Source: a virus (Duplodnaviria > Heunggongvirae > Uroviricota > Caudoviricetes). Taken from it: 20,308 bases of DNA. This document shows, one piece after another, positions 2,908 to 20,308 of this stretch. A model generated the notes under the pieces. It was not told the DNA's origin and searched no databases. It saw only the letters and a program-made list of their open reading frames with translations. Location: positions 92,950 through 113,257 of the IMG/VR virus record IMGVR_UViG_3300029582_000367; one strand, 5' to 3'. A program made the position numbers and the translations under genes. Numbering within the stretch: the first letter of the stretch is position 1; each line of letters opens with the position of its first letter.

Positions 2908-3177
2908 TCACATCACACCATCGTCAACGACATCAATAAAACCGTATTTCAGGCTGTCGTTAATGCCGTGAACGCTGTGCCCGTTATCGAAATCCTTGCG
3001 GAGCTGAGAAGCAGAGGTCTTGGCATCGCCTTCGCCATACTCGAACATCTCCGTCTCGACGCAATTCGACACGATTTTCTTCAGCTTTGTGTGAGAGGTC
3101 GTTGCAGCGACCAAGCGCATGGAGTCTCTTGACTTCCATGCATCGCAGGAAAACACGATGTAAATTGGCTTATTCAC
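2908..3177 (-). CDS. hypothetical protein, 89 aa
   Basis: GTG start with AAGGAG RBS, overlapping the stop of the upstream toxin gene. Confidence 0.7.
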   Translation of the reverse strand: MNKPIYIVFSCDAWKSRDSMRLVAATTSHTKLKKIVSNCVETEMFEYGEGDAKTSASQLRKDFDNGHSVHGINDSLKYGFIDVVDDGVM

Positions 3178-3757
3178 AGTCCTTGCTCCTTTCTTTCCGG
3201 CCTTTACGGTCGATTTCAGCCACAGGATAGGGCGATGCCTTTCTCATGTTGCTGTCCATGATTCTCATTACATGAATGAGCATCTCGGAATAAGCACGAT
3301 GCATCGTCTCGTAGCGGGCACGCCATGTATTATCATCATTGTCGTTGACGCGGGAACTCAACCCCATGCTGTAATACAGCGCAGAGTCGATATCCACCAT
3401 CTCCGCATCTGTCAGATGGCAGATGTATGCGCCAAGCTCGTTCGTGGAGACTGCCATCGGCTGCTCACACAACGCCGTGCTGGGGCGGCTTGTGCTGGTG
3501 ATGAGTACATGAGAGGGAAGCTGCATCTTCGGGGAAGACGTGGTAAACACGACCTCCACGACACTGCTGTACCGATTCAGGTCATCAGCGGATACGACGA
3601 TAGCGGGACGGTGGCCCCTGATGACAGAGCTGTTAGAGGGCTGGCCGTCCTTGTCTCTGAACTGACTTCCTTCCGGTGCCCAAGGAGAATAAATCTCAAT
3701 CTCCTTGGCATTGACCCAGAACACATCACCCCTGCGGATGATGCCTTTTCTACCCAT
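3170..3757 (-). CDS. PemK/MazF-family endoribonuclease toxin with C-terminal extension
   Basis: RRGDVFWV, GHRPAIVVS (catalytic Arg), FTTS (Thr), HVLI, ALCEQ and L-x4-M-x2-ID-x-AL-x3-MGL match the PemK/MazF pattern. Confidence 0.85.
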   Translation of the reverse strand: MGRKGIIRRGDVFWVNAKEIEIYSPWAPEGSQFRDKDGQPSNSSVIRGHRPAIVVSADDLNRYSSVVEVVFTTSSPKMQLPSHVLITSTSRPSTALCEQPMAVSTNELGAYICHLTDAEMVDIDSALYYSMGLSSRVNDNDDNTWRARYETMHRAYSEMLIHVMRIMDSNMRKASPYPVAEIDRKGRKERSKDCE

Positions 3758-7244: not shown

Positions 7245-9299
7245 TTAGTTGCCTCCCGCGCCGATGATGGAATCCACCATCTTACAAGAACCTTTTCCTC
7301 GGTTCAGTAGTTCTTTTGCGTCTTTTTTTGCTTCTTCATATTCCGCCGGATACGCCATCATGAGCGTCATATACCTATTCCAGCCAGACTGTTCTGTGCC
7401 AAGAAAATCGCCGGCGCCGCGAATGCGAAGGTCTGCCTCTGCGATTTCGAAGCCGTTGTTAGTCTGAACCATGGCGTTCAGGCGCTCCATGGCCGCCGGT
7501 GTGGGCGACGGACCTGCATCCAGCACGCAGTAGGACTGCACATTACTGCGTCCTACACGCCCCCGAAGCTGATGCAGGCTGGAAAGTCCAAACCTGTCCG
7601 CATTGACAATGACCATCATGGTAGCCGTAGGAACATTTACGCCGACCTCCACGACCGTTGTGCTGACAAGCACATCTACTTTACCGTTCTTGAAACGAGA
7701 CAGGATGTTGTCTGCCTCATCTTTCGGCGTCTTACCGGTAATCGTTTCGATGCGGACTCCATACGGCTCCAGTACGGAACGGTATTCCTCGCTGACTTCT
7801 TCAACGGACTGGACACCCTCCAGCTTCTCGCTCTTATCAATGAGAGGACAGACGACATAGGTCTGATAGCCTTTACGCTTCTGCAGCAGGATGAAACGGA
7901 AGATTTTCTCTTTGCTCGTTGCGATACCTGTAATCACAGGCAGCCGTCCGTTCGGCATCGTCTTAATGGTATGGAGCTGTACGGTGTCTCCGTACAAGAC
8001 CTGCGCCAGACTGCGAGGAATAGGCGTAGCCGACATAGTGATGGCGTGTACGCCTCCAGAGGCTTTTTCCACCAGTGCAGCACGCTGGTCAACTCCGAAC
8101 TTGTGCTCCTCATCCGTCACCGTAAGTGCGAGATTCTTGTACTCCACACTTTCTCCGATGATGGACTGGGTTCCGACGATGAGGCTCGCATCTCCGTCCT
8201 TGATGGCGGCGAGGACTTTTTTCTTCTCGCTGGCTTTTAGGTCACTGCCGAGCCACGCGACGTTCACGCCGAACGGTGCGGCCAACGCAGAGAGTTCCTC
8301 ATAATGCTGACGTGCCAGCACAAGCGTAGGCGCCATCACCGCTGCCTGATACCCGTTCTCGGCCATGACCATCATCATACAGAAAGCCACAATACTCTTT
8401 CCACAGCCCACGTCGCCTTGGACAAGCGCATTGATGCGATGTCCGTCTGCAGCAAACTGTATCATACTCTCTATGGCATCCACTTGGTCTTGCGTAAGAG
8501 AGTAGGGAAGTGAAGCCTTTATTTTCTCATACCAACCATGCGTCCGTATTGAGAACTGGCTGCCCTTGGATATCTTTCTCGCGGCCCATTCATTCGCCAT
8601 TGCAAAGTAGACGAGGTCTTCCTGCAGCAGTCGGGCTTGTCCCTCTTTAATATCCTGTTCAGAAGTAGGGAAGTGCAGCATTTTGAGGGAAGTCCAGAAG
8701 CTCTGTAATCCCTTTTTATCAAGGTAATCAATAGGAAGCGTTTCAATCATCCCGATAGTTCGGTCAGACGCTTCTTGAATTTTTTCTCTCAGGTAGGCAT
8801 CGCTCATCCCGCCGATTTGCGCGTAGATGGGGCGTATGCCCGGTGCTTGTCCGTATGACGGCTCGAATATCTCAGGGGCTGTCATGGTGAAGTTATTATA
8901 TTTAGTATTGTATCCGACCTTGCCGGCTACATATACAGTTTCTCCAACACAACTGGACACCTTCCGGAACAGGTAGTTCTGCCGGAACCACGTGATGACC
9001 AGCTTTTGACCACTTTGCGGCATCGTGCAGTAGGCGATGAGCATGGGCGTTTTGGAAGAAGTCTGAACGTATGAGCCCTTGTAGCGGAGTTCCTGTCCGA
9101 AGGACTTCACCTCGTCCACCGTGACAAGACAGGCCTGCTCAGCGCCATCTATTAAATAAGGAGCAAGCTGTCTGTAGTCCTTGTAGCTTTTCGGTATATA
9201 CCGCAGCAGGTCTTCGGCAGAACAGATGCCCTTTTTCTCAAATTGCTTTGCTTTCTGTGGCGTGATGCCCAGTGTTGATAGTTTGATAGTAATAATCAT
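7245..9299 (-). CDS. recG: ATP-dependent DNA helicase RecG, ~684 aa (start approximate)
   Basis: LVQGDVGCGKS Walker A, MAPTLVLARQH, DEEHKFGVDQR, MSATPIPRSL, TTVVEVGVNVP, RFGLSSLHQLRGRVGR, GFEIAEADLRIRGAGDFLGTEQSG; GGAGGTG RBS near 9300. Confidence 0.95.
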   Translation of the reverse strand: MIITIKLSTLGITPQKAKQFEKKGICSAEDLLRYIPKSYKDYRQLAPYLIDGAEQACLVTVDEVKSFGQELRYKGSYVQTSSKTPMLIAYCTMPQSGQKLVITWFRQNYLFRKVSSCVGETVYVAGKVGYNTKYNNFTMTAPEIFEPSYGQAPGIRPIYAQIGGMSDAYLREKIQEASDRTIGMIETLPIDYLDKKGLQSFWTSLKMLHFPTSEQDIKEGQARLLQEDLVYFAMANEWAARKISKGSQFSIRTHGWYEKIKASLPYSLTQDQVDAIESMIQFAADGHRINALVQGDVGCGKSIVAFCMMMVMAENGYQAAVMAPTLVLARQHYEELSALAAPFGVNVAWLGSDLKASEKKKVLAAIKDGDASLIVGTQSIIGESVEYKNLALTVTDEEHKFGVDQRAALVEKASGGVHAITMSATPIPRSLAQVLYGDTVQLHTIKTMPNGRLPVITGIATSKEKIFRFILLQKRKGYQTYVVCPLIDKSEKLEGVQSVEEVSEEYRSVLEPYGVRIETITGKTPKDEADNILSRFKNGKVDVLVSTTVVEVGVNVPTATMMVIVNADRFGLSSLHQLRGRVGRSNVQSYCVLDAGPSPTPAAMERLNAMVQTNNGFEIAEADLRIRGAGDFLGTEQSGWNRYMTLMMAYPAEYEEAKKDAKELLNRGKGSCKMVDSIIGAGGN

Positions 9300-9516
9300 C
9301 ACCTCCGTGGGTGAACACTTGTGTTTAGTTGGAATAGTCCAGAATATCCCGACCGAGAAAAAATCTACAATAAAGCCGCCCTCTTTTATTTGGATGTCTA
9401 AAAGGAGCGGGAATTCATTTGTTCTGACCAACATACACAGACTCCACGTGGAGAAAACGTTTTTCTGCGGTGGGAATACGTGGGATTTCCCCCCCCACTT
9501 CGTGCCTTCATGCACC

Positions 9517-9546
9517 ATTATAAACACGGATATAAAATTTTGTCAA
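9517..9546 (-). promoter_or_regulatory. sigma70/sigmaA-type promoter for recG
   Basis: TTGACA-N18-TATAAT on the - strand. Confidence 0.6.
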
Positions 9547-10134: not shown

Positions 10135-10224
10135 GGCGATGTAGCACAAATGGTAGTGCATCCTGCCCAAGAGAGCTCCTTCGAGGGCCGTGGGATTATA
10201 TCGGTTCGAGTCCGGTCGTTGCCC
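10135..10224 (+). ncRNA. tRNA-like RNA with an 18-nt insertion in the anticodon loop
   Basis: Acceptor GGCGATG/CGTTGCC, D arm GCAC/GTGC, T arm ATCGG-TTCGAGT-CCGGT; anticodon stem TCCTG/TGGGA encloses 25 nt. Confidence 0.65.
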
Positions 10225-10321
10225 TTACCATCCTCAACCGAGGATGTGCCTTAACGGGGAGAATTGGGGCTTGGGCGACGTTGGTAAGGCTGCCGCCCAG
10301 CCTTAATTCTTCAAACCACAT

Positions 10322-10399
10322 GATGGCGTAGCATAATGGTAATGCCGTGCCTCTCTCACAGGCAACGTTATGCTGGTTCGACCCCAGCCGCTATCACCA
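10322..10399 (+). tRNA. atypical tRNA with anticodon CTC (Glu), possibly a pseudo-tRNA
   Basis: Acceptor GATGGCG/CGCTATC then ACCA; D arm GCAT/ATGC; TGCCT-CTCTCAC-AGGCA; T arm GCTGG-TTCGACC-CCAGC; extra nucleotides flank the anticodon stem. Confidence 0.65.
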
Positions 10400-10523
10400 A
10401 CCGGCGTTCCACCCACCCCGCCGGTATTCATGTCTCTCCGTGTTTCTCTTTTGAGAGAAACAGGCGGCCTCCGTGCAGGAGTGATTGACCTGCGAGGAGC
10501 GGAGGCCGCCATCGACCCAAAAT

Positions 10524-10599
10524 GCTGGTGTAGCTCAATCGGCAGAGCGGTTCATTCGTAACGAACAGGTTGTGGGTTCGATTCCCGCCGTCAGCTCCA
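10524..10599 (+). tRNA. tRNA-Thr(CGT)
   Basis: 76-nt cloverleaf, anticodon loop TTCGTAA, encoded CCA. Confidence 0.92.
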
Positions 10600-10730
10600 A
10601 TCCACACTTTTTCTCCTTTGCTTTTTTCATTTTTATCCCCCCTGTACGAAGCCCTCACAGACAACGCAGTTGAAAATTAAATTTCAGCCGCACTGCCTGT
10701 GGGGGCTTCAACCCCATCTATTGCCCATAT

Positions 10731-10806
10731 GCTGCTGTAGCTCAGTAGGTAGAGCAGCGGATTTGTAACCCGCAGGTCGGGAGTTCGAGCCTCCCCAGCA
10801 GCTCCA
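10731..10806 (+). tRNA. tRNA-Thr(TGT)
   Basis: 76-nt cloverleaf, anticodon loop TTTGTAA, encoded CCA. Confidence 0.92.
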
Positions 10807-10847
10807 TTTTCAATTTAACTCTCTACGGAGTCCATCTTATCATATAT

Positions 10848-10923
10848 GCGGATGTCGTCTAATTGGTGAGGCACCGGCCCTCCAAGCCGGTCATTGCGGG
10901 TTCGAGTCCCGTCATCCGCTCCA
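10848..10923 (+). tRNA. tRNA-Gly(TCC)
   Basis: GCGGATG/CATCCGC acceptor, anticodon loop CCTCCAA (C33 instead of U33), U73 and CCA. Confidence 0.88.
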
Positions 10924-10959: not shown

Positions 10960-11525
10960 CTCACTGTCCGTTCATTGATTCGTTGCGGAAATCGGCGTCT
11001 CATGGACATCCTGTTCGCCGCAAGGCCTCGCTCTTTCGCTTGAGGCTACTGCGCCGAACCGCCTCGGACAGTATCGGCGAAATGCGAAAGTCTCCTGAAG
11101 CGTGAGAAGCGAACCGCCTGCGCCTATATGTAGGCGGTGGCGTGATAAGGGAGATACTCCGCATTGTTTCAGCCGCCGTGAGCGGGCATCAATGACAGGC
11201 AGAGGCTCCCGCCTACCGTGGTGCTAATTCACAGGCTGCTGTGATTGCCACGCTAAGATTCCAGAGGATTTAAGATTCCAGAGTTACGGTTCACTTTGAG
11301 CTGTGCTTATGGCATCTCTCGTACTTTGGAATCCCACTCCGTGAGGGGTGGGAGGAGTCAACTATGGGCACCTGCATTGCCCATGGGTACTGGGAAGCTG
11401 GGCAAATCTTAGGCACAGAAGCTCGTAGTCAAAGCCGACCCGCCGGACGCGGTGCGTCAGCTTTCAAATTGGGCTTTGTGGGGTCCAGTGTTCTTGCGGT
11501 TGGGTTGCCGCAGGGCCGGCAAAGA
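10960..11525 (+). ncRNA. candidate large multi-domain structured ncRNA
   Basis: No credible ORF; nested long-range helices at 10963-70/11065-72, 11075-86/11160-75 and 11301-09/11410-18; GNRA-capped hairpins. Confidence 0.5.
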
Positions 11526-11537
11526 ATAATTATCGGA

Positions 11538-11597
11538 TACGGCAAGGCGAGTCGGAATTAACGCCTGTAGAGACGAAATCCGTCGGTGAAACAGGAA
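11538..11597 (+). ncRNA. omegaRNA-like scaffold core, copy A, in the tnpB 5' leader
   Basis: TACGG...CGGAATTAACGCCTGTAGAGA...CGTCGGTGAAACAGGAA is homologous to 12754-12815 and 14443-14504. Confidence 0.65.
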
Positions 11598-11636: not shown

Positions 11637-12695
11637 ATGGCGACGACATTTCAGGCTTTTAAGTATCGCATCTATCCCACAGATGAACAAATCGAGGTCA
11701 TCGAACGCACCTTCAAGTGCTGCCGCTTCGTGTGGAATCACTTTTTGGAGCGTACCAGCAAAATCTACGACCGCCGGCAGGAAAGTATGTCAAAGTTCGA
11801 CTGCATGAAGGTCCTGACCGAGATGCGTGAGCGCTGGCCGTGGCTGGAAGATTGCGGGTGTTCCGCAGAGCGATATGCTATCGTGAATCTGTTCGAGGCG
11901 CGTAAGGCCTTCTTCCGCCGTATAAAGGCAGGGGAGAAGCCCGGTTATCCCAAGTTCAAAAGTGCCCGTTGTCCGTCTCAGAGCTTTACTACCGCCGGAA
12001 CCATCTATGTGACGGACGAGTGCATCCAAGTCCCTTTCGGCAGTCAGTATCAGAAAATCAATAAGGTCAAGCGCGGCAGTGGCCGTCCCGCTGTGGGCAT
12101 CCCCCGCGAGGTCACGATATCCCGTTCCTCTACCGGTAAATACTGGGCATCCGTCTGTTGCATGGTGGAGCGCGAGGAACTGCCTGTCGCCGAGGGCGAA
12201 GTCGGTATCAGCCTCGGTCTGAAGGAGCTGGCTATCGACAGCAACGGCGTACACTATGAGAACCCGAAGCATCTGAGCAAGTCCGCAAAGCGTCTTGCTC
12301 GTGAGCAGCGTCGTCTGTCCCGCAAGCAGAAGGGTTCTGCCAACTATGAGAAGAACCGTAAGCTGGTGGCTGAAATCCATGAGCATATTGCCAACCAGCG
12401 GCGTGACTATCGACATAAAATCAGCCGCGAACTCGTCAACAGCAACCAGCTCATCGCTGTTGAAAAGGTGGCTGTCAAGTCTCTGGTTGAGGGCAACGAG
12501 CAGGCCAAGAGCATCCTCGATGCCGGCTGGTCTGAGCTGACCAGCATGATTAAGTATAAGGCTGAGTGGGCTGGACGCATTCTGGTGGACGTAGACACAG
12601 CCACCGTAGCGCCGGAAGCCAAGCATGACGAGGCGCTGGCACAGGTCGTGCTGTCCGAAGGTCAGCGCATGGCTTCCGAGCAGAAGCCTGCCTAA
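11637..12695 (+). CDS. tnpB: TnpB-family RNA-guided protein, predicted nuclease-dead (TldR- or dCas12f-like)
   Basis: AFKYRIYPT, CRFVWNHFL, GYPKFKS, ENPKHL, QRRLSRKQKGSAN and ILDAGW are IS605 TnpB hallmarks; RuvC-I reads VGISLG (S192 where D is expected); E276 kept; CxxC zinc finger absent; RuvC-III degenerate. Confidence 0.9.
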   Translation: MATTFQAFKYRIYPTDEQIEVIERTFKCCRFVWNHFLERTSKIYDRRQESMSKFDCMKVLTEMRERWPWLEDCGCSAERYAIVNLFEARKAFFRRIKAGEKPGYPKFKSARCPSQSFTTAGTIYVTDECIQVPFGSQYQKINKVKRGSGRPAVGIPREVTISRSSTGKYWASVCCMVEREELPVAEGEVGISLGLKELAIDSNGVHYENPKHLSKSAKRLAREQRRLSRKQKGSANYEKNRKLVAEIHEHIANQRRDYRHKISRELVNSNQLIAVEKVAVKSLVEGNEQAKSILDAGWSELTSMIKYKAEWAGRILVDVDTATVAPEAKHDEALAQVVLSEGQRMASEQKPA

Positions 12696-12705
12696 AGCCG
12701 AGCGA

Positions 12706-12734
12706 GAAAAGTGTGCAATGATTGCACACTTTTC
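12706..12734. repeat. perfect inverted repeat with 14-bp arms, between the tnpB stop and the scaffold
   Basis: GAAAAGTGTGCAAT-G-ATTGCACACTTTTC. Confidence 0.85.
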
Positions 12735-12753: not shown

Positions 12754-12884
12754 GTACGGATGGTATGACCGGAATTTACGCCTGTGGAGATGCATGGTCG
12801 TCGTGGAAGCAGGAATACTCTGTAAGCTGGTTTTCATGTGAGAGATGATGCCGGCACCTTAGGGAACTGAATATGCCTGTGGCG
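12754..12884 (+). ncRNA. omegaRNA/tracrRNA-like scaffold, copy B, fused to CRISPR array 1
   Basis: ACCGGAATTTACGCCTGTGGAGA...GAAGCAGGAA resembles the tnpB 3' end/omegaRNA; highly similar over ~130 nt to 14443-14575. Confidence 0.75.
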
Positions 12885-13237
12885 GGTGTATGAGACCTGA
12901 AACGACAGGGTTGTATACCCAAATCGTGGAACATTTGTCTCAACCGACAGGTGTATGATACCCTGAAACGACAGGGTTGTATACCTGTGGGGCCGCTGTC
13001 GCTGACCGGTACGCCGGTATATAGGGCCCTGAAATAACAGGGTTGTATACCCCGGATGGGACGCGAGTAAGCCTCTATGTGGTGTATAAGGCCCTGAACT
13101 AACAGGGGTGTATACCAGAATATCCCGTCCTCATCGACCGACACAAGGCGTATAAGCCCCCGAAATAGCAGGGTTGTATACCAATGGCTCGTTCGGAATT
13201 TGGCATATACGGTTCTAAAATAACAGGGGTGTATACC
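12885..13237 (+). CRISPR. CRISPR array 1: 6 repeats, 5 spacers (strand inferred from tnpB)
   Basis: Repeats close to GGTGTATAAGGCCCTGAAATAACAGGGTTGTATACC at 12885-12919, 12950-12985, 13016-13051, 13081-13116, 13147-13182 and 13202-13237; unique spacers of 30, 30, 29, 30 and 19 nt. Confidence 0.9.
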
Positions 13238-14442: not shown

Positions 14443-14575
14443 GTACGGACGGTATAACCGGAATTAACGCCTGTGGAGATGCTTGGTCGTCGTGGAAGCA
14501 GGAAAGACTCTGTTAGCTGGTTATCATGTGAGAGGTGATACCAGCACCTTTAGGGAACTGAATATGCCTGTGTTG
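14443..14575 (+). ncRNA. omegaRNA/tracrRNA-like scaffold, copy C, fused to mini-array 2
   Basis: Direct repeat of 12754-12884 with substitutions that preserve the stem (GCTGGTTATCAT/GTGATACCAGC). Confidence 0.75.
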
Positions 14576-14678
14576 GGTGTATGGGGCCCTGAAATAACAG
14601 GGTTGTGTACCCGCACTTACCGTGATATCGAGCATTGTGTTAGGTGTATGGGGCCCTGAAATAACAGGGTTGTGTACC
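14576..14678 (+). CRISPR. CRISPR mini-array 2: 2 identical repeats, 1 spacer
   Basis: GGTGTATGGGGCCCTGAAATAACAGGGTTGTGTACC at 14576-14611 and 14643-14678; 31-nt spacer. Confidence 0.85.
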
Positions 14679-15953: not shown

Positions 15954-16748
15954 TTGGAAAGCACAAGCAAAAAACAAGTAAAATGGGGGATTTTCAAGAC
16001 TGCACTCTTTACGTTCCTGTTCGTCGCAGTATCCGTTTTCTATTTTCACTCCAGTAACGTGACACTCGCACAGGCCGAAGAACGCTCGAACCACGAATCA
16101 CCTCCTGCAGCAGCGGTTGCCGCCCAGATGGACGACACCAAGCTGTCGGAAGAAGCGCAGCAAGATGTTTTGGTGCTGAAAGAAGGAATCCTCGACCCGC
16201 TTTCCGACATCACGGAAGCAGAGAACTCCGAAGATGACCCCAACGCCGTTGAAGAAGTACAGGAGGTTGTTCCTGCTGTCTGTTCCTACTGCGGCTCTGA
16301 GAACCACAGTTCTTCAATCTGTGCAAAGAAGTCTATTGCCAATGGCGCCTATGGGCGCTGGGTGATTCCGTCTGTTGGCTGTAATGTAGCGACCTACTCG
16401 TGTAACTGGGATGCAGACCAATCCTATGTTCAGGAAATTACTGACAGTTCCGACAGTGCAGCTTTTTTGACTTGCGGCGGCGTTGGTGTTCTTGCAGACC
16501 ACAATAACCAAGGTTTCTGGGGACTTTCCAATGTTTCTGTTGGCACGAAAGCCTACATGGACTTTGGTGATGGCGCAACTTACTACGAGTGCTATCAGGT
16601 TGAATACGGACACAATACCGGCGAAAAGATGCTCGATGGAAATGGAAACATAATGAGCTACAGCAACTATTCTTCCGGCACTGTGATTTGTTACACCTGC
16701 CTTGACCACTGGACCAACATTTACATCACTTACTGGACGCCGGTATAA
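15954..16748 (+). CDS. membrane-anchored zinc-knuckle + sortase-fold protein, paralog 1
   Basis: N-terminal hydrophobic helix, acidic linker, CSYCGSENHSSSIC, GRWVIPSVG, ADHN, VICYTC. Confidence 0.75.
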   Translation: MESTSKKQVKWGIFKTALFTFLFVAVSVFYFHSSNVTLAQAEERSNHESPPAAAVAAQMDDTKLSEEAQQDVLVLKEGILDPLSDITEAENSEDDPNAVEEVQEVVPAVCSYCGSENHSSSICAKKSIANGAYGRWVIPSVGCNVATYSCNWDADQSYVQEITDSSDSAAFLTCGGVGVLADHNNQGFWGLSNVSVGTKAYMDFGDGATYYECYQVEYGHNTGEKMLDGNGNIMSYSNYSSGTVICYTCLDHWTNIYITYWTPV

Positions 16749-16792
16749 GCGCCAGACACCCACTCTCTACTCCTCTTAGAAAGGACAAAACC

Positions 16793-17593
16793 ATGAAAAC
16801 GAAATTCAAAATCCCTCAGTGGGCACTCTTCACCGTTATCATTCTGGCCTTTATCGGTGGTCTCTTTGCCATCTCCATGCTGCCTGCTTTCGCATCACGT
16901 GAAAGCTCTCCGCCTTTGGCAGTAGCAGAAGCCGCGCAGAACGAGGAAAAGGACGCAAATTCTGATGCTCAGACTCCCGAAGCAGACAAGACGACAGATG
17001 AACAGGGAAGTGCTGAAGCCCCCGTAGAGGCCGAGTCTCAGGCAGACGACGCCGTCGTTGTCGAAGAAACTCCCGCCGAAGAGCCTGTTCAGGAAACCCC
17101 GACTACCTGTTCCTACTGCGGCAGTGCAGAACACACCAGAGACTACTGCGCCGTTCGTGCCGTTGACAATGGTGCCGTTGGCCGGCTCCGGATTCCCTCT
17201 GTCGGTGTTGACGTGGCTGTCTACGACGTTACTTGGTACTCTCTGCAGCATACCACCGAGAGTGACAACTACACGCAGGCCGTTACAGATGCATGGGACA
17301 GCGCAGCACAAATCGTCTATCTCGGCCAGACCGTTATTGGCGACCATAATAATCAGGGCTTCTCCGCCATCAACAACTGCTCCGAAGGCACCTACGCTTA
17401 CATCGACATGGGCGACTCTGTCCTGACCTATGTTTGCACCGGCATCCAGCATGGTCGTAACCCCGGTGGCTATCTCACCGGTGCCGATGGCGATAGCATC
17501 TATACCTCTTACTTCAATCCCAACGGTCTGACGCTGTATACCTGTCTCGACCACAACTTCAATGTTGCCCTCGTGACATTCCAGCCTGCTTAA
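16793..17593 (+). CDS. membrane-anchored zinc-knuckle + sortase-fold protein, paralog 2
   Basis: Transmembrane helix, CSYCGSAEHTRDYC, GRLRIPSVGVD, GDHN, LTLYTC. Confidence 0.8.
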   Translation: MKTKFKIPQWALFTVIILAFIGGLFAISMLPAFASRESSPPLAVAEAAQNEEKDANSDAQTPEADKTTDEQGSAEAPVEAESQADDAVVVEETPAEEPVQETPTTCSYCGSAEHTRDYCAVRAVDNGAVGRLRIPSVGVDVAVYDVTWYSLQHTTESDNYTQAVTDAWDSAAQIVYLGQTVIGDHNNQGFSAINNCSEGTYAYIDMGDSVLTYVCTGIQHGRNPGGYLTGADGDSIYTSYFNPNGLTLYTCLDHNFNVALVTFQPA

Positions 17594-17609
17594 AGGAGGT
17601 GCAGCTTTA

Positions 17610-18383
17610 ATGAAAACAAAGAAAATTTCCCGCCGCGCTGTTACGCTGGCTGCCTTTTTGCTGGTAAGCGCATCATCTTTACATATGGCTTGTGCAGAGG
17701 CTTCGGTGCCGTTCGATTACTTTACTGATGACCTCTCTGTGTCCGCTGACGCCGTTGCGAAGGAAGATAAATACCTGCCTCCTGAGTGGTTTACAAAAGG
17801 AACTGCCGTAAGTGGAGTGGACTCAGACACGCCCACGGAGGAGATTCCTACCCCTGCGGGCGAACCCTCTGTGGCGACCCCCGTGCCTGAGCCCGCACCG
17901 GAAACCGCAGCAGTCTGCAGCTATTGCGGCAGCGCAGGGCACTCGCAGAATAGGTGTTCCGTTTACGCTGTCGAACAGCGAGGTGCCGTTGGGCGTTGGT
18001 CTATCCCTTCTATTGGAATAGATGTCGCTTGCTTCACCTATGTGCTTGGAAGCGATTCTTTCGAGTACGGACAGGCAATTTGTGACGCTGCCGATAGTGC
18101 TGGCTACAGTGCGTATGGGAGCCAGTATCTCATTGCAGACCACAACTATCAGGGCTTTTCTGCCATAGCCAACTGCGCGGTTGGTGCGGTGGGATATATG
18201 GATTACGGAAACAGTCGAACAGAATATGTTTGTACTGGGGTGGAGTATGGGCACAATGAAGGCACGGAACTGACTGATAATGACGGAAACGATGTTGCGT
18301 ACAACAACAGTGGAGGAATTACCCTTTACACCTGTTACAACGGTTGGCAAAACGTCGTTATCGTTTACTTTACTCCGACTTAA
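17610..18383 (+). CDS. secreted zinc-knuckle + sortase-fold protein, paralog 3
   Basis: Signal peptide, CSYCGSAGHSQNRC, GRWSIPSIGID, ADHN, ITLYTC. Confidence 0.8.
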   Translation: MKTKKISRRAVTLAAFLLVSASSLHMACAEASVPFDYFTDDLSVSADAVAKEDKYLPPEWFTKGTAVSGVDSDTPTEEIPTPAGEPSVATPVPEPAPETAAVCSYCGSAGHSQNRCSVYAVEQRGAVGRWSIPSIGIDVACFTYVLGSDSFEYGQAICDAADSAGYSAYGSQYLIADHNYQGFSAIANCAVGAVGYMDYGNSRTEYVCTGVEYGHNEGTELTDNDGNDVAYNNSGGITLYTCYNGWQNVVIVYFTPT

Positions 18384-18621: not shown

Positions 18622-18709
18622 CGGGATGGAGACTTGTCATTTTTTTATGTTTACTTTATAATAGATGCGAGCGTCTGTGCAGAGGACGTACCATAAAGAA
18701 AGGAGAAAT

Positions 18710-20308
18710 ATGACTACTGAAAGAAAGAAGAAAACAACAGAAGAAAAAGTAAAGAGAAATACAACAAAGAAAGCGAGTAACACAACACGAAACACACAAC
18801 CCAAGAAGAATAGCAAGAAGAAAACCAACAATTTACCATTAGCACTTCCTGATTTTCAGACTTTTCTTGAGAGTGATAAGCCTCTTGATGAGTTCTTAAA
18901 AATCACGGCCTGTTATGTCCGAGTCTCGACGGATGCACAGGCGGAACAAGGATATTCAATTCCCGACCAGACCGCAAAGCTACAGGCGTTTTGCACTGTG
19001 AAGGGATGGGAGAACGTGAAGTTCTACACCGACCCCGGCTTCAGTGGCAGCAACCTCAACAGACCGGCAATGCAGGAGTTAATAGCTGATGCTATGGCAG
19101 GGCGCCTGAAGGCAGTAATCGTATTTAAGCTGGACCGATTATCACGAAGTCAGAAGGATACACTCTACCTGATAGAAGATGTATTCCTTCCAAACGAAGT
19201 GGATTTCGTCAGTATCTCTGAATCCCTCGACACAAGTACCCCCTTTGGCCGAGCTATGATAGGTATTTTGAGCGTTTTCGCGCAGTTGGAGCGTGAGAAC
19301 ATCTACTTACGTACACGTATTGGCATGAAGGGACGTATAAGTTCCGGATTTTGGAGAGGTGGCGGCAATATTCCGTTCGGCTACGATTACGACAAAGACA
19401 AGAAAACGCTTGTCCCTAACGCCGACGCGCCTAAAGTGCAGCAGATATTCAACCTATATATCAAAGGGTATAGTTGCCAGAAGATTGCAGATATGTTAGG
19501 TCTCTGCAATGATATGATGGTACGGAATATTCTGAAACGACGTACTTACTGTGGGTATGTCAACTACAAGGAAGAAGAATATCCGGGCGTCCATGAGCCA
19601 TTGATTTCCGAGGAAACCTTCGATATTGCTGCGGCTGAGTATGACCGCAGGAGTCGTGCTGGTCTTAATGCGTGTGGCACAAACACGTATTATCTTTTGG
19701 CAGGACTTGTCTATTGCGGCGATTGCGAAGCGCGGATGCGTTATATGAAGTGGGGTAAATACTTCAAAATCATATGCTATTCTCATACCAGCAAAGCCTC
19801 GATGGTTAAGAACCCTGATTGTCCCAACATGGGCTTTCTTGCTTCTGACATAGAAGAGCTTGTTATCAATAAGCTCTTTGGAATTGGTTCCGGTGTTCCC
19901 CTCGAAGAATTTGAGGTAAAGTGGCATTCACCCAATACTCGTGAGATTATTGAGAAGCGCATCTCAGATGCGACTACAAAACTCAAGCGGCTGTACGGGC
20001 TTTATTCTGAGTCCGGTGACAGTGTCATCCACGAACGCATCTTTGCCGTCCGTAACCAAATTCGCACGTTACAGCAAGAACTCGACAACGAGGACAAGCA
20101 TAGCATTAGGGACAGCCATGTGAGCTATGTTCGAGACCGTATTAAAAACGTGGGTGACATCTGGCCGCATTTAACACCTATGGAACGGCAGACTCTCATT
20201 CGTGATTGTGTTGATAAGATTATTATTCATCACGATGGAAGCGTCAAGATTTTCTTTTCTTTCTCTACTTTCGATGAGGACAAGCAGTGTATCGAAGAAG
20301 AAAATTGA
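18710..20308 (+). CDS. large serine recombinase (integrase type)
   Basis: YVRVST (catalytic Ser), DPGFSGSNLNRP, KLDRLSRS, PFGY recombinase domain, CGDC zinc ribbon, coiled coil; AAAGGAG RBS before ATG 18710; Lys-rich N-terminal extension. Confidence 0.93.
   Translation: MTTERKKKTTEEKVKRNTTKKASNTTRNTQPKKNSKKKTNNLPLALPDFQTFLESDKPLDEFLKITACYVRVSTDAQAEQGYSIPDQTAKLQAFCTVKGWENVKFYTDPGFSGSNLNRPAMQELIADAMAGRLKAVIVFKLDRLSRSQKDTLYLIEDVFLPNEVDFVSISESLDTSTPFGRAMIGILSVFAQLERENIYLRTRIGMKGRISSGFWRGGGNIPFGYDYDKDKKTLVPNADAPKVQQIFNLYIKGYSCQKIADMLGLCNDMMVRNILKRRTYCGYVNYKEEEYPGVHEPLISEETFDIAAAEYDRRSRAGLNACGTNTYYLLAGLVYCGDCEARMRYMKWGKYFKIICYSHTSKASMVKNPDCPNMGFLASDIEELVINKLFGIGSGVPLEEFEVKWHSPNTREIIEKRISDATTKLKRLYGLYSESGDSVIHERIFAVRNQIRTLQQELDNEDKHSIRDSHVSYVRDRIKNVGDIWPHLTPMERQTLIRDCVDKIIIHHDGSVKIFFSFSTFDEDKQCIEEEN

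Follow-up and report, generated by a model that had tools for sequence, protein, structure and literature searches.

A RuvC-inactivated TnpB encoded next to omegaRNA-like scaffolds and CRISPR-like arrays on a large gut element: a candidate for RNA-guided silencing

The window analysed here, a stretch of 20,308 nucleotides that forms the end of a 113-kb viral-collection record (G000), includes a tnpB gene whose reading frame is intact and whose product lacks catalytic and zinc-finger elements of the family. The question that this locus raises is whether such a gene is a remnant of a transposon or has been kept for a function and, if so, for which one. A first-pass annotation made from the sequence alone proposed domestication; its claims about the sequence stand, as detailed below, while the guide scaffold and the repeat arrays located downstream of the gene had been overlooked and no function was offered.

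The inactivated tnpB gene and its copies

The 352-amino-acid protein, P0001, is encoded without internal stop codons, in agreement with the intact, frameshift-free frame noted previously. It scored 252 bits against the TnpB profile NF040570, above the cut-off, and 301 bits against NF038281, below the cut-off of 425 for that profile. Its domains are PF12323 and PF01385, i.e. the TnpB HTH and OrfB domains, and the TNB domain is present only as a 24-residue remnant. PADLOC matches to Cas12f and Cas12u (best E 1.6e-40) were weaker than those to TnpB models (E 1.3e-89), and the similarity to ISDra2 TnpB (E 4e-51) compares with one to LaTranC of E 2e-13 over an 83-residue stretch only. The AlphaFold model of P0001 (pLDDT 83.7) had a TM score of 0.82 to ISDra2 TnpB (8exa).

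Alignment with ISDra2 TnpB (8bf8, 8h1j) placed Ser192, within the motif VGISLG, in the column of the RuvC-I aspartate; its AGC codon is two changes away from GAC. The RuvC-II glutamate is retained as E276 and the next residue is a lysine. In the place of the C4 zinc finger of RuvC-intact relatives there is a short linker, with about 26 residues missing and no cysteine pairs, and their RuvC-III sequence DRDxNAAxNI reads HDEALAQVVL, D331 occupying the column of the RuvC-III aspartate. These are the lesions that the first-pass annotation had described (the loss of the RuvC-I aspartate by two substitutions, ED changed to EK with E276 kept, a linker instead of the CxxC...CxxC domain, and a RuvC-III degraded to DEALAQVVL in which D331 might survive), and the alignments with ISDra2 TnpB and with RuvC-intact relatives bore out all of them. 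In an alignment of 265 proteins the triad is D-E-D in 241, S-E-D in P0001 and P0003, and C-E-G in P0112. P0001 therefore has the fold and domains of the IS200/IS605 TnpB nucleases and lacks their D-E-D triad and C4 zinc finger. Six other TnpBs without the RuvC-I aspartate and the zinc finger (P0205, P0228, P0258, P0286, P0296, and P0309) were located on separate branches of the tree. The features of the locus are collected in Table 1.

Table 1. Features of the dead tnpB locus, with coordinates in the window.
Feature	Coordinates	Strand	Basis or remark
Scaffold 5' half only, in the 5' untranslated region of dead tnpB	11537..11597	+	Sequence homology
RuvC-inactivated, zinc-finger-less TnpB (putative effector, 352 aa, P0001)	11637..12695	+	ORF, profiles, alignment, model
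Ser192 codon at the RuvC-I Asp position	12210..12212	+	AGC in 12/44 copies, AGT in 32/44
RuvC-II Glu276 retained, followed by Lys277	12462..12467	+	Alignment
Zinc-finger-replacing linker and remodelled RuvC-III helix (D331 at 12627-12629)	12597..12659	+	Purifying selection
Perfect palindrome, 14-bp arms	12706..12734	.	Several copies just upstream of scaffolds
OmegaRNA-like scaffold 1 (131 nt)	12754..12884	+	Abuts repeat 1 without gap; 5' half homologous to omegaRNA of intact tnpB
CRISPR-like array: six ~36-nt hairpin repeats, five spacers (30, 30, 29, 30, 19 nt)	12885..13237	+
OmegaRNA-like scaffold 2, stand-alone cassette, no tnpB alongside	14443..14575	+	Sequence homology
Second mini-array: two repeats, one 31-nt spacer	14576..14678	+

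Copies of the gene were taken from 26 viral-collection and 17 metagenome loci, which together with the window make 44 copies and 31 alleles; a chimeric locus (L137) and distant matches (3/29 and 24/42) were excluded. No stop was found in codons 1 to 348 of any of the 44 copies, and Ser192, E276, Lys277, and D331 are invariant among them. Comparison of the two allele groups gave a dN/dS of 0.062-0.076 at a dS of about 1.2, and copies within the window's group gave 0.04-0.10; for the two intact TnpBs of the window's own record the value was 0.10. The remodelled C-terminus (residues 317-348) accumulated six synonymous and zero to one non-synonymous changes. Given 44 stop-free copies and a dN/dS of about 0.07, the dead tnpB is a domesticated gene rather than a decaying transposon gene, and the test of dN/dS across orthologs proposed in the first-pass annotation came out in favor of purifying selection. 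Close relatives with an intact RuvC, which that annotation had named as evidence against domestication, were not found, since the nearest RuvC-intact proteins are about 50-56% identical to P0001.

In a quick tree the dead TnpBs P0001, P0003, and P0112 form a single branch (SH-aLRT 100) nested among RuvC-intact TnpBs and located near the intact TnpB of the element itself (support 100 and 86). The loci of P0112, a 65% relative, were searched for and not found. The protein clusters of the dead TnpB hold 147 and 370 member sequences, and the element is thus not rare in gut data. A chimeric protein (P0004; L137) consists of the N-terminal half of an intact TnpB and the dead C-terminal half, and a chimeric RNA (L026, 10031-10190) of an array-type 5' half and an intact-type 3' half; as judged from their sequences, both appear to point to recombination between the dead and the intact systems.

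Carrier element, scaffolds, and arrays

The relatives of the window's record, G001 to G004, are 172-192 kb long, and two of them (181 and 192 kb) carry terminal repeats. Since G001 codes for VirD4, a VirB4/TraG ATPase, pilin, a CHAP hydrolase, RepL, ParAB, topoisomerase, and large TQ/SpaA adhesins, the element, which was filed as a virus, is by its gene content a conjugative plasmid or ICE of about 170-190 kb from the gut. Its identity as a phage was rejected on the basis of these conjugation and replication genes, no capsid or terminase family being found among the ORFs scanned. G001 to G004 have one TnpB each, the dead copy, while the window's own record includes two intact tnpB genes (53% identity to the dead copy) and two iscB genes; G004 has neither, and IscB was consequently rejected as the effector. 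Profile searches for Cas1, Cas9_PI, and Y1 TnpA were negative in all five records, the Cas9 control being weak (no control genome scored above the cut-off). The dead tnpB shows no sign of IS200/IS605 mobility: a Y1 transposase is absent from five of five records, and the gene is found as a single copy with a constant downstream cassette.

Other features of the element include a 27-29-bp perfect palindrome present in about 8 to 10 copies per element, which are clustered around parAB and beside several scaffolds (e.g. G001 71467-81702) and could, from sequence and position, be parS-like sites, operators, or terminators. A hairpin with a TCAA end, which we take to resemble an IS200/IS605 end, occurs three times in G000 (window 11329-11362; G000 33852-33883 and 48961-48992) with no adjacent transposase. 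Five tRNA genes, for Glu, two Thr, Gly, and one atypical (10135-10224), are clustered at window 10135-10923, and an Rfam scan returned tRNAs only and no omegaRNA family. The window also includes, at 15954-18383, 18665-20308, 7245-9527, and 3170-3757, three paralogous sortase-like genes with a CxxC knuckle, a large serine recombinase located 6 kb from the dead tnpB, a RecG helicase, and a PemK/MazF-like gene.

Scaffold 1 starts about 60 nt past the stop codon of the dead tnpB, and the scaffold 5' half is common, by sequence homology, to the omegaRNA found behind the RuvC-intact tnpB genes of the element. The first downstream cassette consists of scaffold and repeat in all 40 loci that were long enough to be scored (3 of 43 were too short), at a distance of at most 100 nt in 33 and beyond an insert of about 1.75 kb in 7. 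This insert (IscB in L001, 7050-8800; also in L136 and L138) lies within the final codons of the gene in these seven loci and leaves gene and cassette undisrupted. Nine cassettes were found in G001 and eight in G004, both near-complete, and five in G000, two of them in the window and three elsewhere. With few exceptions a scaffold motif of the TnpB type precedes the array start by about 114 nt. Cassettes without a dead tnpB were found in G006, which is uninformative on the link of gene and cassette because the 13-kb region around the gene is missing there altogether. The half-scaffold preceding the gene is present in the allele group of the window and was not seen in the inspected loci of the other group. 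Repeat-less scaffold 5' halves joined to other 3' ends are located at G000 C1 61605-61690, G001 77180 and 37521, and G004 37678, one of them directly behind a tRNA-Ser gene.

In 261 of 267 units the loop of the scaffold 5' hairpin is complementary at six of six positions to the end of the first repeat (its last six bases); this count is redundant, and it is not independent evidence for a pseudoknot because the 5' arm of the repeat pairs with the same six bases. The RNA of the intact TnpB has a different loop and a correspondingly different matching end. Folding of single sequences or of the alignment did not predict the pseudoknot (z -1.1), which has the geometry expected for the guide-placing pseudoknot of TnpB, as given in excerpts of PMC13639567. 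A scan for sigma-70 promoters and terminators stayed at chance level and yielded no promoter for the cassette, and three RNA-labelled runs, two of them flagged as probably DNA, contained scattered contigs only. The locus shares with those of TldRs a RuvC-inactivated TnpB conserved outside a transposon and an adjacent omegaRNA-type scaffold, the latter recognised by sequence homology.

The arrays comprise 110 distinct spacers, 74 of which are 29-31 nt and 60 exactly 30 nt long. Scaffold-proximal spacers are rarer than distal ones, being common to a mean of 1.8 versus 3.6 array types (32 arrays with at least three spacers; Wilcoxon p=0.0004), and the length of 29-31 nt was found for the proximal spacer in 24 of 33 arrays and for the distal one in 14 of 33. 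The shortened spacers q75, q80, and q40 have lost their 5' end. Turnover of spacers takes place at the end next to the scaffold, and the arrays behave adaptively. Unique, polarised spacers beside a TnpB-derived effector are the arrangement expected of a type V (V-U-like) system. The repeat pattern occurs in 66 viral-collection stretches on 27 contigs, 26 of which carry the dead gene while the 27th is without the whole region; a repeat-like tandem pattern was absent from the 165 genomes searched. On another viral contig (L288, 5791 onward) a distant TnpB with an intact RuvC-I is followed by four regularly spaced repeats.

Spacer targets and possible acquisition in trans

Credible targets were found for 3 of the 110 spacers; the other 107, including all five of the first array of the window, had none. 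In 45 of 47 loci, from Faecousia and other Oscillospiraceae, further Clostridia, and Collinsella, one spacer of the array L130 is identical over 30 of 30 positions to a P-type ATPase gene of the chromosome, a match also present in many Collinsella genomes, and the next spacer of L130 matches an SPFH gene of Oscillospiraceae at up to 28 of 30. Both matches lie deep in coding sequence, not in promoters, and both spacers come from a recently expanded array; they may be unselected acquisitions. The third, a spacer of L004, matches 18 of 18 positions counted from the spacer's 5' end; the match spans a TTGACA box located upstream of the gene for the large adhesin in G004 (17 of 18 in G001; rough chance estimate 0.002-0.02). 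Matches of the promoter type amount to one of 110 spacers, at a -35 box of a sister element, as compared to two in coding sequence, and no TAM was established at these sites. Another spacer matches a repeated leader of the element at 18 of 20, which is borderline. Among 81 spacers 11 were coding-like, 5 sense and 6 antisense, which indicates no strand bias.

Targets were absent from GenBank phages and PLSDB plasmids, from 165 genomes of one Oscillospiraceae genus for the window array, from 401 genomes of the family for spacer q72, and from 61 genomes for the L020 array; for the third L130 spacer none of the genome sets searched contained a full-length match, and four single-spacer scans of viral contigs returned the arrays themselves or nothing. 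Two sets of partial matches were rejected: spacer q11 matches 16/18 positions close to a host cas locus but drops to chance level over its full length, and the 15/16 matches of spacers q10 and q36 to element genes are within the estimated chance. Independent spacers overlap on opposite strands, and one such pair spans a ribosome-binding site and ATG; these overlaps would point to acquisition hotspots, whose source was not found in searches of viral contigs and genomes of the family Oscillospiraceae. Three independent spacers (L006 7379-7450, L127 7280-7300, and L020 8440-8470) tile one site of about 60 bp with a ribosome-binding site and ATG, and in many relatives one of them is the only spacer that the first cassette contains.

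As there is no Cas1 on the element, we infer that the integrase must come in trans. A type II cas1 was found over the cut-off in 14 of 201 Oscillospiraceae genomes, and a II-C-type repeat is common to 8 of the 14 arrays recovered from Oscillospiraceae genomes with a type II cas1; the II-C gene order was checked in L265 (Cas2, then the array), as opposed to L263, which has Csn2. Read away from cas1/cas2, the II-C repeats are identical to the plasmid consensus at 16-21 of 36 positions, as compared to 14-16 when reversed, with shuffle p values down to <1e-4 from shuffles that do not preserve palindromy, and one of them shares 11 consecutive bases in register with the plasmid repeat; II-A repeats reach 14-18 of 36. 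These comparisons are suggestive of a relationship of the plasmid repeat to the Oscillospiraceae II-C repeat in the variable-end orientation. No identical host repeat was found, the best of the 14 arrays reaching 21 of 36, and the true host is perhaps unsampled. The host Cas1-Cas2 may add spacers to the arrays; according to excerpts of PMC8092290, a II-C Cas1 can feed a foreign array and the PAM is then reversed upstream. The ATPase and SPFH target sites are both antisense and have much of their 5' flank in common (TCTTGGTNRC). A reversed N4-type II-C PAM has its fixed bases at -5 to -10 and looser bases nearer the spacer. The shared flank would fit such a motif, with two sites compared and in genomes that are maybe not those of the host.

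Proposed mechanism, alternatives, and relation to known systems

The dead TnpB is the sole recognised candidate effector, with no other TnpB on G001 to G004 and no Cas1 in the five records searched. It probably loads scaffold-repeat-spacer RNA and silences matching DNA by steric block without cleavage. The protein would bind the adjacent omegaRNA-type scaffold-repeat-spacer RNAs and be guided by them to matching DNA. Scaffold and first repeat would act as one unsplit omegaRNA with the spacer as its 3' guide, and the 5'-hairpin loop would pair with the last six repeat bases to form the TnpB pseudoknot. The later repeat-spacer units might be loaded in turn or serve as an archive, which would explain the copying of the scaffold to many cassettes; the presence of a whole scaffold in each cassette suggests that each mainly serves its own adjacent spacer, in an unsplit state. 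The loss of the 5' end in the shortened spacers is a counterpoint, as it is not favored by a 5' seed model. A host Cas1-Cas2 of type II, probably II-C, would add the new spacers from outside the element, in trans; chromosomal spacers would be tolerated because the effector cannot cut, and those repressing rival elements or host genes would be kept by selection. We tentatively consider a wider possibility, in which a conjugative plasmid has built an adaptive CRISPR interference out of an unsplit omegaRNA with a captured II-C repeat as its 3' end and a dead TnpB, the host II-C Cas1-Cas2 writing spacers, including those from the host chromosome, into up to nine cassettes, so that the plasmid could sample and select repression of host and rival genes.

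The 36/30 geometry, the identity of up to 21/36 to host II-C repeats, the many plasmid ORFs with no assigned family, and the mini-arrays of mobile elements known to borrow host Cas proteins (excerpts of PMC11656645) could all be accommodated if the arrays served as mini-arrays for another effector (host Cas9 reading them oppositely, host Cas13, or a plasmid protein that escaped recognition), in which case the dead TnpB would be an RNA chaperone or an independent TldR with a single guide. This is unlikely: the 25-nt repeat pattern has no match in the GTDB genome collection whereas the repeats of known mini-arrays are exact copies of those of the host, G000, G001, and G004 have no anti-repeat outside the arrays, the arrays keep their distance to the TnpB-type scaffold motif, and no Cas profile was detected in the 30 proteins scanned besides P0001. 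In addition, a perfect chromosomal spacer such as that of L130 should be toxic in combination with an active Cas9. The output of an RNA-guided DNA binder could also be recruitment (activation, recombination, or partition) instead of repression, as in dCas12f-sigmaE and Cas12k, dead TnpB descendants that recruit (excerpts of PMC13472631 and PMC11656645); conservation is higher in the new C-terminal helix than elsewhere in the protein, and the large serine recombinase is not far away. However, the upstream sequence of the dead tnpB differs between allele groups and no partner gene is conserved next to it, and the element proteins scanned include neither a sigma factor nor a Tn7 gene product, so that we regard recruitment as distinctly unlikely.

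That the arrays guide RuvC-intact TnpBs in trans as a plasmid immunity, with the dead copy as a decoy that sequesters omegaRNA or blocks cutting, is very unlikely, since the arrays of G001 to G004 occur without any intact TnpB, the intact elements possess a loop and a 3' end of their own, and a 30/30 chromosomal spacer is carried, even though two intact TnpBs at 53% identity are encoded on the window's own record and chimeric genes and RNAs exist (P0004; L026). A residual nuclease or RNase activity through a rearranged site formed by E276, D331, and another acidic residue, used for instance in guide trimming, might be read from the invariance of both residues in 44 copies and from the rearranged RuvC sites of some TnpB clades (excerpts of PMC10691335). 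Such an activity is highly improbable in a protein without the zinc finger and with serine at the RuvC-I position, which is cysteine in P0112 where the RuvC-III position is glycine, and TldRs show the same pattern (excerpts of PMC13622181). Finally, a decaying IS605-family remnant, on an element that bears other IS200/IS605-type genes (IscB, intact TnpB), has next to no probability; neutral decay was rejected on the stop-free copies and on a dN/dS of about 0.07 at a dS of about 1.2.

The proposed silencing by the dead TnpB can be compared with several published systems, the likenesses and differences being those that appear in excerpts of the papers cited. TldRs (PMC10705468, PMC13622181) also have the TnpB fold with the first RuvC acid replaced and the zinc finger and RuvC-III lost, are non-mobile, and keep an omegaRNA-type scaffold. 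The TldR clades described there (fliC, csrA, oppF) have fixed guides to promoters, and the word array does not occur in PMC13622181, whereas many cassettes with changing 30-nt spacers are found here on a conjugative element. CRISPR-associated TnpBs of V-U6 to V-U45 (PMC10691335) are likewise small, with an array downstream and no cas1/cas2; a scaffold fused to the first repeat in dispersed cassettes does not appear in the excerpted descriptions with which our locus was compared. TranC, an intermediate from TnpB to Cas12 with a TnpB-like RNA and an array (PMC13639567, bioRxiv 10.1101/2025.09.28.678669, PDB 9jfo), consists of active nucleases with an RNA split into tracrRNA and crRNA, whereas in our locus no active RuvC is present and scaffold and repeat are contiguous in the DNA. 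Cas12m (type V-M) and array-linked dCas12f are nuclease-dead type V-like proteins on mobile elements that silence by binding and have arrays without adaptation genes (PMC11656645, PMC13472631); their folds are distant, with about 10-15% identity in structure matches, and the Cas12m chains among the PDB matches are 516-604 aa long versus 352 aa here. The VI-B array of Flavobacterium columnare has no cas1, is transcribed from the variable end, is fed by II-C with a reversed upstream PAM, and holds many spacers from its own chromosome (PMC8092290). Its effector is the RNA-cleaving Cas13b, and acquisition in trans, described there, is here only inferred.

Dead TnpB or Cas12f proteins with arrays are already in print (PMC10691335, PMC13472631, PMC11656645), as are other, larger conjugative megaplasmids of the gut (PMC12934698) and an active phage Cas12r (bioRxiv 10.64898/2026.04.20.719267), all according to excerpts. 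A literature search that covered few subscription papers gave no account of this element or of dispersed cassettes in which a scaffold is joined to a II-C-like repeat. Taken by its sequence features, the dead TnpB likely works like a TldR, in a locus likely organised like a minimal V-U type V system.

While the TldRs in the excerpts cited above have fixed guides, this dead TnpB appears coupled to spacer-acquiring arrays and, if so, would be a natural self-reprogramming CRISPRi of 352 amino acids. The locus represents a recent and tractable case of a TnpB gaining an array, with the intact ancestor type, 53% identical, on the same element. Two routes for the origin of arrays, duplication of the omegaRNA and capture of an existing array, are named in excerpts of PMC10691335; this locus makes it testable whether the array arose by omegaRNA duplication or by capture of a host repeat, and whether a split into tracrRNA and crRNA is needed. 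If the adaptive interference proposed above were true, it would represent a step from TnpB to CRISPR that preceded RNA splitting and in which nuclease activity was never needed.
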